From Basidiobolus ranarum (taxonomy: Eukaryota): a stretch of DNA of 64,000 bases. Within the stretch, counting starts at the first letter, position 1; every line of letters begins with the position of its first letter. The position numbers and the translations under genes were made by a program. The notes under the pieces are model-generated. The model was not told the DNA's origin. It did no database searches and saw only the letters and a list, made by a program, of their open reading frames with translations. The stretch covers positions 1-64,000 of the forward strand of contig JASJQH010000005.1 of NCBI GenBank assembly GCA_040143965.1. Direction: 5' to 3'. Of this stretch, positions 25,610 through 27,741 are shown in pieces.

Positions 25610-27741
25610 ATGAAATTTGGCAACTTTATCAACGCCCGAAAAGTGAATTACCCGGAATCATGGATACCCTATATTCTCGATTATGTCACTCTGAAAAATT
25701 ACATTAAGCAAAATATTGTTCCTAATTCACTCGCCTTATCAAAGCTTACAGCTGACCAACTTGACTGGAACTTGGAATCTACTAACGAAAACTCATACCA
25801 GAATCTTGTCACTTCTCGCTTAGGTAAACTTCAGACTCTAGTGGGAGAATTTTTGAACCAATTGGATAAAGAGGTCAACACACTCAATGAGTTTTATGTA
25901 AGTGAGACTGAAAGGATTGTTTCCTACCGTCGCCAAAGTGAAGAAGATACTGTAACCAGCAAAGAGATGCTACAACGCATCATAAAGCTTGAGAGTTTCG
26001 TGCTATTAAACTATACTGCTATAACGAAGATTCTAAAGAAGCATGACCGACACGCTGGCTTGAAAATAAGCGACTCTTATTTATTACGTATTTCATATTT
26101 GCCGTTTGTTCGCTCGGAAAACTTATTAACCTTGAAACGAGTTTTACTCCGAGATATTGGTGAAACTTCGCAGACGCCGTCTTGCACTTCACCCGAGTTG
26201 ATACTTTCAAAGAAAATTTCACCAGCAGAGAAGAAGAATTGGTTCCCAACGGCTGCTTTGTTACCACATCAAAAAGTCCTCGTATCGCTCACTGGACCTC
26301 ACGGAACTGATATCATTGGATGTATATTGCAATGTGCCTCTACACATAATTGTGAGATTGAGGATTTTATGTTCTCGCGACTGTATCACACTGCCACATT
26401 TGGTGTTTTGATTACACTTACAAACGACAATGTGGCAATCTTCCAGGATTTGGCTGAAGCAGCTCGTAAATGGGACGGTACCTTATCTTTCGAAATTCAA
26501 GAAAACCACGGTCCTTTGCCCAAATCTATCGAAGAAGCTCCTTACCAAGACAGAGTTAAATATGCAGCTACAATCCTTAATCAAAATGGTCTTTCTGCTA
26601 AATTCCTATATGAGTGGACACATTTACTACTGAAGCATAAAATCTCAGTAGAAAAGATGGCCAGGTTGAATGAGGGTCGTGTTTCTTGTGCTGATTACAA
26701 GTTGAGTGTGCCCAAGACCGTAGATTATGATTCACTTCGTGTCCAGCTATTTCAGTTGAGTTTAAGTCATGGCACAGATGTAGCCATGCAACCTTACGAC
26801 GTATTTCGCCGTAATAAACGACTTGTTGTTTTTGATATGGATTCCACTTTAATTCAACAAGAGGTGATTGATGAGATTGCTAAACATGCGGGTGTAGTAG
26901 ACCGAGTGGCTGTAAGTTATATAATCAAGAATTGTCTAAGATATGCTTACTTATAACTCTCCTCAACACTTTACAGACTATCACTGAACTAGCTATGAAC
27001 GGTGAAATTGATTTTAAAGAATCGCTACGTCGTCGTGTTGAACTTCTAAAGGGTACATCTGTTTCTGTACTTGATACTGTAAAAGCTACCTTGACTTTCA
27101 CCGAAGGAGCTCGTGATCTCTGTAAAGCATTGAAGAAAATCGGTCTCAAACTTGCAGTTATCTCTGGTAGGAAATGAATGAATAGCACATAATGAATTGT
27201 TTCCTCAATTGACATTTAATTGCTATTGTAGGTGGTTTTATGCCTTTAGCTAACTATGTCAAGAACGAGCTTGGTCTGGACTACGCTTTTGCTAACCAAC
27301 TCAAAGTCTCTTCCGATGGCTTAACCCTAACCGGTGAGACTGTTGGACCCGTTGTGGATGGCCAACGTAAAGCAGAGTTATTAGAGGTTATTGCTCAAGC
27401 AGAAGCGGTTACCTTGGATCAAGTTTGTTTGCTTTATAGAATATGAAATCATTCAAAATCACTAATTTGTTTTATTATGGAATATAGGTGATTGCCGTTG
27501 GTGATGGAGCTAACGATTTGTGGATGCTAGCCGCCGCTGGGTTGGGTATTGCGTTTAATGCCAAGCCCAGGGTCCAAGAAAGAGTAAACACCTTTAGTTT
27601 TTACTATTGTAATCTACAAAATGACTGGAAACTAACTGGTTATTTCTCTAGGCAAACACTCGGATCAATCAGAAGAGTTTGAAATATGTTCTTCATTTAC
27701 TTGGATACACTGATGAAGAATGTAGGCAGTTGTACGAGTAA
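25610..27741 (+). CDS. SER2: SPX-ACT-ACT-phosphoserine phosphatase (SerB/Ser2) fusion, 5 exons
   Basis: SPX motifs [30 protein letters not shown]; two ACT-like domains; HAD motifs [11 protein letters not shown]^GF, RKAELL, GDGANDL. Confidence 0.92.

Follow-up and report, generated by a model that had tools for sequence, protein, structure and literature searches.

SPX domains are receptors for inositol pyrophosphates (PP-InsP) that switch attached or bound effectors, as set out in sections of PMC9911596 and PMC12653687, and the effectors named in the relevant sections of these two papers, of PMC8401276 and of bioRxiv 10.1101/2019.12.13.875393 are phosphate transporters, a polyphosphate polymerase, a cyclin-dependent kinase inhibitor, and transcription-factor partners; in the same sections of PMC9911596, PMC12653687, and PMC8401276, no amino-acid biosynthesis effector is named for SPX. 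In Vtc4/Vtc3, XPR1, Pho81, Pho87/90/91, and Gde1, the SPX domain is N-terminal and is followed by the regulated module on one chain. Further SPX effectors are ubiquitin ligases and Gde1 itself, an SPX-bearing enzyme that frees phosphate from glycerophosphodiesters. The template 5IJJ is the GDE1 of C. thermophilum (part of bioRxiv 10.1101/2019.12.13.875393). Among phosphoserine phosphatases (PSPs), mycobacterial SerB2 (PDB 3p96, 5is2, 5jlp, 8a1z) carries two ACT domains ahead of the catalytic domain, and sections of PMC10564941 describe an active, ACT1-swapped dimer that is in equilibrium with higher oligomers lacking activity, and cite E33, R103, and T136 of the M. tuberculosis enzyme (MtSerB2) for L-serine feedback via the ACT pair. 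The gene described here, on the + strand of a 64,000-nucleotide stretch of Basidiobolus ranarum DNA (the window; positions 1 to 64,000 of contig JASJQH010000005.1), encodes a protein in which an SPX domain is joined to an ACT-ACT-phosphoserine phosphatase of the SerB2 type; NCBI taxonomy places the species in the Basidiobolomycota.

The gene has five exons and extends from an ATG at 25610 to a stop at 27741, exactly the start and stop of the coding sequence given in an earlier note made from the sequence alone. The ATG lies one codon past an in-frame stop, within a stop-to-stop open reading frame (ORF) at 25607-26956 (+), and a GTAAGT donor at 26912 closes a first exon of 434 codons without a stop. 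When the exons were joined by script, the spliced translation of 622 amino acids was letter-identical to the database protein P0002, annotated "Phosphoserine phosphatase [Basidiobolus ranarum]". Because all of the fused domains begin in this one uninterrupted exon and the splice model reproduces the database protein, a gene-model artefact was rejected, as the earlier note had argued. The protein is ordered as SPX, a disordered linker of about 35 residues, ACT1, ACT2, and a HAD-type catalytic domain (Table 1). Pfam recognizes the SPX domain (PF03105) with 40.9 bits in exon 1 and 39.1 bits in the whole protein, against a cut-off of 27.8, and ACT_6 with 26.7 bits (cut-off 23) at aa 223-294; a scan of the whole protein adds HAD families. 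ACT_6 exceeds its cut-off for ACT1 only, and ACT2 (aa 311-395) has no separate Pfam ACT match in this protein; both of the ACT-like domains that had been read from the sequence do align to SerB2 and appear in the model. An AlphaFold2 model built from 42 orthologues (mean predicted local distance difference test, pLDDT, 80.3; predicted template modelling score, pTM, 0.52) recovers the SPX helices (3-13, 16-21, 25-39, 63-109, 114-149, and 154-184; pLDDT mostly 80-96), beta-alpha-beta-beta-alpha-beta units at 222-296 and 315-395, and a HAD fold at 405-621, with residues 185-210 of the linker below pLDDT 50. In a second alignment (A2), the linker differs greatly in length between species. Exon 1 has Met codons only at residues 1, 120, 254, 350, 393, and 410, and because none falls between residues 120 and 254, it offers no AUG-started product that would lack SPX but contain ACT1.

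The SPX part finds, over its whole length, its closest sequence match in plant SPX1/SPX2 (PDB 7d3y, 7e40); OsSPX2 (7d3y) matches aa 1-175 with an E value of 5e-7, and Vtc3, Vtc4 (5iig), and the SPX domain of XPR1 are also matched. In structure comparison with VIA-align, residues 3-184 of the model superimpose on XPR1 SPX (8tyu_B) with Z 17.8 and a root mean square deviation (rmsd) of 2.6 A over 159 aligned residues, on Vtc4 with Z 16.4 (8i6v_E) and 16.1 (5iiq_A), and on the InsP6-bound SPX entry 5ijp_A with Z 15.8 (154 aligned), all above the Z of about 13 at which VIA-align calls for caution with helical bundles. The fusion therefore has in common with the SPX PP-InsP receptors both the fold (Z 16-18) and the Tyr/Lys ligand residues. 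In Vtc4, InsP6 (inositol hexakisphosphate) is contacted by Y22, K26, and K133 of the phosphate-binding cluster and by K129, K132, and K136 of the lysine surface cluster (PMC9911596, in part), and the AtSPX1 counterparts are Y25, K29, and K139 and K136, K140, and K143 (bioRxiv 10.1101/2019.12.13.875393, in part). Alignment to the Vtc4 chain of 5iig (offset +3) puts Y25/K29/K144 and K140/K143/R147 of the B. ranarum protein at the Vtc4 positions, and a gap-free alignment to OsSPX2 places Y25 and K29; these residues and the KILKKHDR cluster are found where the earlier note had put them, in a domain that passes the profile test. Conservation was followed in an alignment (A1) of 42 full-length named orthologues, chosen for completeness and taxonomic spread from 120 listed. 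Y25, K29, K140, K143, and K144 are identical in 42/42, whereas at position 147 R occurs in 37 sequences and K in the other 5; five of the six ligand positions are thus invariant, and the sixth is always basic. The domain around them is much more variable: mean column conservation in A1 is 0.41 in the linker, 0.54 in SPX, 0.71 in ACT2, 0.78 in ACT1, and 0.87 in the PSP domain, so that only the linker is less conserved than SPX. By these alignments, all residues known to hold InsP6 or PP-InsP in other SPX proteins are kept across fungal lineages, and their selective retention in a variable domain is our strongest argument that the domain would still work as a receptor. If SPX were an inherited remnant without function, its decay or loss in several lineages that retain the enzyme would be expected, and such cases do occur (see below); the invariance of the ligand contacts amid far more variable surroundings and the confidently predicted fold nevertheless make this reading highly improbable.

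The C-terminal part is a SerB by several measures, with scores that chance would not produce. The NCBIfam serB equivalog TIGR00338 matches aa 390-610 over its full profile (1-219 of 219) with 272.7 bits, against a cut-off of 144.15. Residues 219-616 are collinear with residues 9-396 of M. avium SerB2 (PDB 3p96; E 4e-62, ~35% identity) and share the ACT1-ACT2-PSP order and catalytic motifs of the mycobacterial enzymes, which, unlike the fungal protein, have no SPX domain. SerB2 is also the top Foldseek match of the model (E 2e-33). VIA-align gives Z 35.0 for model residues 219-622 against SerB2 (rmsd 11.2 A, 366 aligned), Z 30.9 for 316-621 against Brucella SerB (7qpl_A), and Z 28.5 for the HAD domain against M. 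jannaschii PSP (1f5s; rmsd 1.9 A, 208 aligned, 46% identity). The same catalytic domain occurs without SPX and without ACT in M. jannaschii PSP, in human PSPH (1l8l), and in the Ascobolus immersus SerB P0224. HAD motifs I-IV (DxDxT, S/T, K, GDxxxD) are complete, with D409, D411, T413, S497, K544, D567, and D571 all invariant in the 42 orthologues; motif II, SGGF (aa 497-500), straddles the junction of exons 2 and 3, exon 3 also encodes K544, and exon 4 encodes GDGAND (aa 566-571). The motifs FDMDST, SGGF, K, and GDGAND are thus present, as noted previously. E418 and R454 are likewise invariant, in a region (aa 401-608) that matches residues 3-208 of 1f5s; they would correspond, by a constant offset of 398 in numbering rather than by a residue-level alignment, to what we take to be E20 and R56 of the M. 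jannaschii enzyme, which presumably hold the serine moiety. On sequence grounds, the SerB-type catalytic apparatus is intact, and the gene is assigned as the B. ranarum phosphoserine phosphatase, predicted to catalyze the last step of the phosphorylated serine pathway, in which inorganic phosphate (Pi) is released.

That the reaction releases Pi, and that SPX is also fused to the phosphate-mobilizing hydrolase Gde1, would fit a different role, in which the enzyme is a Pi-recycling phosphatase: low phosphate would turn it on to liberate Pi from phosphoserine or some related ester, and serine would come from a second, plain SerB. We consider this role distinctly unlikely: no part of the protein is more conserved than the catalytic domain, which scores above the strict cut-off of the serB equivalog, among the matches listed only one SerB-type cluster stood out per named species (short proteins lying outside this search), and no Pho4-type CACGTG/CACGTT site occurs in the 683 bp upstream of the SerB start.

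The same architecture is widespread among fungi outside the Dikarya, as a survey suggested in the earlier note now indicates. With exon 1 as query, 973 proteins were retrieved at E <= 0.001 among 5776 candidates, and the best 120 of these 973 were inspected: a precomputed SPX match is present in 119 of the 120, the exception being one Blakeslea protein, and SPX together with a HAD family in 95. Among the matches listed, named genera place the fusion in Basidiobolus, Zoopagomycotina, Kickxellomycotina, Mucorales, Umbelopsidales, Endogonales, and Mortierellales, as well as in Glomeromycotina (including Rhizophagus), several chytrid orders, and Piromyces; the higher groups represented are Mucoromycota in the wide sense, Chytridiomycota, Neocallimastigomycota, and Blastocladiomycota. 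An exhaustive search of 1.84 billion representatives gave 8446 matches, among which no more than about ten clusters at 50% identity extend over SPX, including those of Coemansia, Podila, Catenaria, Smittium, Sorochytrium, and Saitoella. P0303, whose label we take as Paraphelidium, combines SPX (47.1 bits) with the ACT1 loop GPHGTDI of the fungal proteins and is a probable aphelid with the fusion. The other 24 of the best 120 (431-549 aa, e.g. P0021, P0061, and P0087), all metagenome or Logan calls, contain SPX and ACT only; their appearance is that of fungal contigs called in prokaryote style, with the frame cut off at the first intron, and the name "glycine cleavage system regulatory protein" that several of them bear is misleading.

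Taken together, the receptor-type SPX domain and the SerB2-type enzyme on one chain suggest that a PP-InsP-sensing SPX domain tunes the attached phosphoserine phosphatase, with ligand binding altering enzyme output; by analogy with the known SPX proteins, we regard this as the probable function, with some reserve. The domain would work as in VTC, XPR1, and plant SPX proteins, namely as a receptor for inositol pyrophosphates, which report cellular phosphate status. Ligand-bound SPX could then shift an ACT-dependent conformational or oligomeric equilibrium and hence the rate of phosphoserine hydrolysis, a route that appears the most likely one because SPX adjoins ACT1, the domain whose swapping sets the dimer/oligomer balance in SerB2. 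As to direction, we tentatively lean toward activity in the ligand-bound state at phosphate repletion; serine for phospholipid, sphingolipid, and one-carbon/nucleotide synthesis would then become available when the phosphate supply permits growth. A second small-molecule input probably enters through the ACT pair, with serine as the obvious candidate, although the fungal and bacterial ACT1 loops are not alike. The PP-InsP pathway is represented in arbuscular mycorrhizal fungi, for which homologues of Kcs1 and Arg82 are listed (a table in PMC8401276, in part); Rhizophagus, which belongs to this group, carries the fusion.

Tuning of the enzyme through SPX is not the only way in which such a domain could act. 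Plant SPX1/SPX2, which, unlike the fungal fusion, consist of SPX only, bind a separate transcription-factor partner in a PP-InsP-dependent manner (bioRxiv 10.1101/2019.12.13.875393, in part), and SPX-SPX contacts are described for VTC in sections of PMC12653687; with the long disordered linker setting SPX apart from the enzyme, the domain might be a ligand-dependent docking module that takes the phosphatase to a partner or a site in the cell, such as the vacuole, a transcription factor, or a second SPX protein, or might serve phosphate signaling, possibly with the enzyme as a protein phosphatase, and without allostery. In PMC4270767, MtSerB2 is reported to act on host cells via its phosphatase activity, which would agree with a role of this kind. 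No partner, however, is known or predicted; retention of the fusion across many fungal lineages argues that the attached enzyme is the regulated object, and both the serB equivalog score and the invariant, presumed substrate residues point to phosphoserine rather than to a protein substrate. We therefore hold docking or protein-phosphatase signaling to be unlikely, if less so than Pi recycling, and retain tuning of the attached phosphatase by SPX as the preferred reading.

Several observations weigh against this preferred reading. The pTM of 0.52 and the disordered linker mean that the model gives no confident placement of SPX relative to the rest of the protein, and a complex prediction between SPX (aa 1-185) and ACT-ACT-PSP (aa 215-622), run with the orthologue alignment unused, scored 0.02 against a mark of 0.34 and is uninformative either way. 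The ACT1 loop, G229-P-H231-G232-T233-D234-I235 (GPHGTDI), is invariant in 42/42 orthologues but non-canonical, being GVDQPG in mycobacterial SerB2 and not of the GxDxPG type here; a conserved role at this loop is suggested, which need not be serine binding. In the model, the relative position of ACT1 likewise appears different from that in SerB2, or uncertain, with an rmsd of 11-12 A over the whole match. The case for serine feedback, taken as established for the mycobacterial SerB in the earlier note, is weaker than supposed there: an L-Ser-induced oligomer shift was observed with the M. tuberculosis enzyme but not with two close orthologues (PMC10564941, in part). The SPX domain has also decayed or disappeared in places. 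The collinear protein of Saitoella (Taphrinomycotina; 613 aa) has an SPX score of 22 bits, below the cut-off, with K29 changed to T and an altered ACT1 loop; Neolecta is missing the N-terminal SPX helices and KILKK; and a metagenome lineage (P0132) has a degenerate SPX with the Tyr and most lysines lost. The Ascobolus immersus enzyme (395 aa) has no SPX or ACT match and aligns over aa 388-620 only (55% identity), and gene models of Batrachochytrium, Sanchytrium, and Amoeboaphelidium show no SPX, some of them perhaps through model errors. Because SPX is decayed or absent in several lineages that keep the enzyme, it is, as far as these sequences tell, dispensable for SerB as such. Two entries of Gigaspora margarita (P0310 and P0312; 426 aa, about 200 aa shorter), unlike other Glomeromycotina, also have no SPX match, reflecting either loss or a truncated gene model.

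The history of the fusion was approached with a tree of the ACT-ACT-PSP part, obtained by a quick maximum-likelihood search with SPX columns removed (45 rows, 19 labelled and 26 unnamed), and with branch support from the Shimodaira-Hasegawa-like approximate likelihood ratio test (SH-aLRT) only. All holomycotan ACT-ACT-PSP sequences form one clade (SH-aLRT 99), in which Saitoella and Neolecta group together (99), and the simplest reading would be that early fungi already had the fusion and that it later eroded in Dikarya. To our knowledge, it is missing from model yeasts. A similar layout occurs in the ancyromonad Fabomonas tropica, where one transcript isoform encodes a 622-aa SPX (46.3 bits)-ACT-ACT-HAD protein with a canonical SPX N terminus and lysine cluster and with a bacterial-type ACT1 loop, GPDRPG. 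The tree leaves Fabomonas outside the holomycotan clade, unresolved near Galdieria, and so does not decide whether the fungal and Fabomonas fusions go back to one origin; its N-terminal 330 aa used as a search query returned only its own cluster, and shared ancestry, convergence, and an assembly problem cannot be told apart on these sequences. The Fabomonas isoforms P0149, P0279, and P0280, from one assembled gene, are of 410, 622, and 331 aa, only the 622-aa form having SPX; the sensor could be gained or omitted through alternative starts, or the assemblies could be incomplete.

From an evolutionary point of view, a bolder proposal, which we put forward only tentatively, is that the ancestral fungal phosphoserine phosphatase was gated by inositol pyrophosphates, such that InsP7/InsP8 on SPX would drive an ACT1-swapped oligomer switch, phosphate status would directly set serine flux into phospholipids, sphingolipids, and one-carbon/nucleotide synthesis, the ACT pair would integrate a second metabolite, and the whole would have been lost in Dikarya. 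If so, this loss would explain why yeast genetics never found the link, which would couple phosphate status directly with central carbon and nitrogen metabolism in arbuscular mycorrhizal fungi, in Mucorales, and in chytrids; all three, with gut fungi, are among the bearers of the fusion. Much of the phosphate acquired by plants is delivered by arbuscular mycorrhizal fungi. The fungal ACT-ACT enzyme may also open another, independent approach to the morpheein-type regulation known from SerB2.

In full-text literature searches judged by titles and abstracts (subscription journals and supplements being outside their scope), we found no paper on this fusion, and "phosphoserine" has 0 occurrences in a term search of the fungal phosphate-signaling papers PMC8401276 and PMC12653687. 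The earlier statement that no characterized SPX-SerB was known to the note's author agrees with these searches, whereas its candidacy as an undescribed system stands only for the literature and not as uniqueness, given the near-universal SPX matches among the best 120 homologues. Because public databases show the architecture through automatic Pfam assignments, it is uncharacterized, not unseen. What is new is the class of effector to which the SPX receptor is joined: the named SPX effectors all deal with phosphate itself, whereas here the effector would be an enzyme of serine synthesis, and hence of amino-acid biosynthesis, with an ACT pair of its own. The sensor-plus-enzyme reading is well founded, and dual control by PP-InsP and serine is offered as a hypothesis.

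Table 1. Features of the SPX-SerB gene of B. ranarum (positions in the window)
Feature	Position	Strand	Description
Exon 1	25610..26911	+	aa 1-434: SPX, linker, ACT1, ACT2, HAD motif I; single open frame
Exon 2	26977..27166	+	aa 435-497 and first base of G498
Exon 3	27232..27422	+	remainder of G498, aa 499-561; K544 at 27369-27371
Exon 4	27488..27583	+	aa 562-593; GDGAND at 27500-27517
Exon 5	27652..27741	+	aa 594-622 and TAA stop
Introns 1-4	26912-26976, 27167-27231, 27423-27487, 27584-27651	+	GT..AG; read from the sequence
SPX domain	25610..26161	+	aa 1-184, all-helical; Pfam PF03105, structure matches
Y25 and K29	25682-25684, 25694-25696	+	two of three phosphate-binding-cluster positions; OsSPX2 alignment
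Helix-4 basic cluster KILKKHDR	26027..26050	+	aa 140-147 (K140, K143, K144, R147); Vtc4 alignment
Linker	26162..26263	+	aa 185-218, disordered, length varies between species
ACT1	26264..26509	+	aa 219-300, beta-alpha-beta-beta-alpha-beta; Pfam ACT_6, SerB2 alignment
ACT2	26540..26794	+	aa 311-395; SerB2 ACT2 alignment, AlphaFold2 fold
HAD-type phosphoserine phosphatase domain	26795..27741	+	aa 396-622, exons 1-5, stop included
HAD motif I, DMDST	26834..26848	+	aa 409-413 (D409, D411, T413); invariant 42/42

The four introns are strikingly even in length (65, 65, 65, and 68 nt). Upstream, an ORF at 24399-24926 (+) carries an AAA+ lid domain (PF17862, 43.5 bits) at its end and probably represents the final exon of a gene for an AAA ATPase, ending about 680 bp before the SerB start. 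Downstream, a short ORF at 28663-28893 (-) matches the Autophagy_act_C active-site domain (PF03987, 27.1 bits); it probably belongs, as an exon, to an Atg3/Atg10-like gene that runs toward the 3' end of SerB. A single TGACTC, the Gcn4-type core, lies at 25390, about 220 bp upstream of the ATG; with about 0.3 sites of this kind expected by chance in that upstream stretch, it hints at amino-acid control but is not evidence for it. Among the more distant homologues, long matches of 768-1664 aa had been suspected as further SPX fusions, a candidate dropped when 0/16 of those scanned gave an SPX match at E <= 1e-4. Several of P0135, P0136, P0138, P0142, P0144, P0147, P0148, P0151-P0153, P0155, P0163, and P0164 (~780-1150 aa) have what appear to be tandem ACT-ACT-HAD units, with a first ACT_6 near the N terminus and a second ACT-HAD unit at the C terminus; P0135 (a EukProt transcript), P0142, and P0144 are laid out differently, none of the proteins in this set has an SPX match, and the tandem proteins would represent a duplicated SerB architecture.

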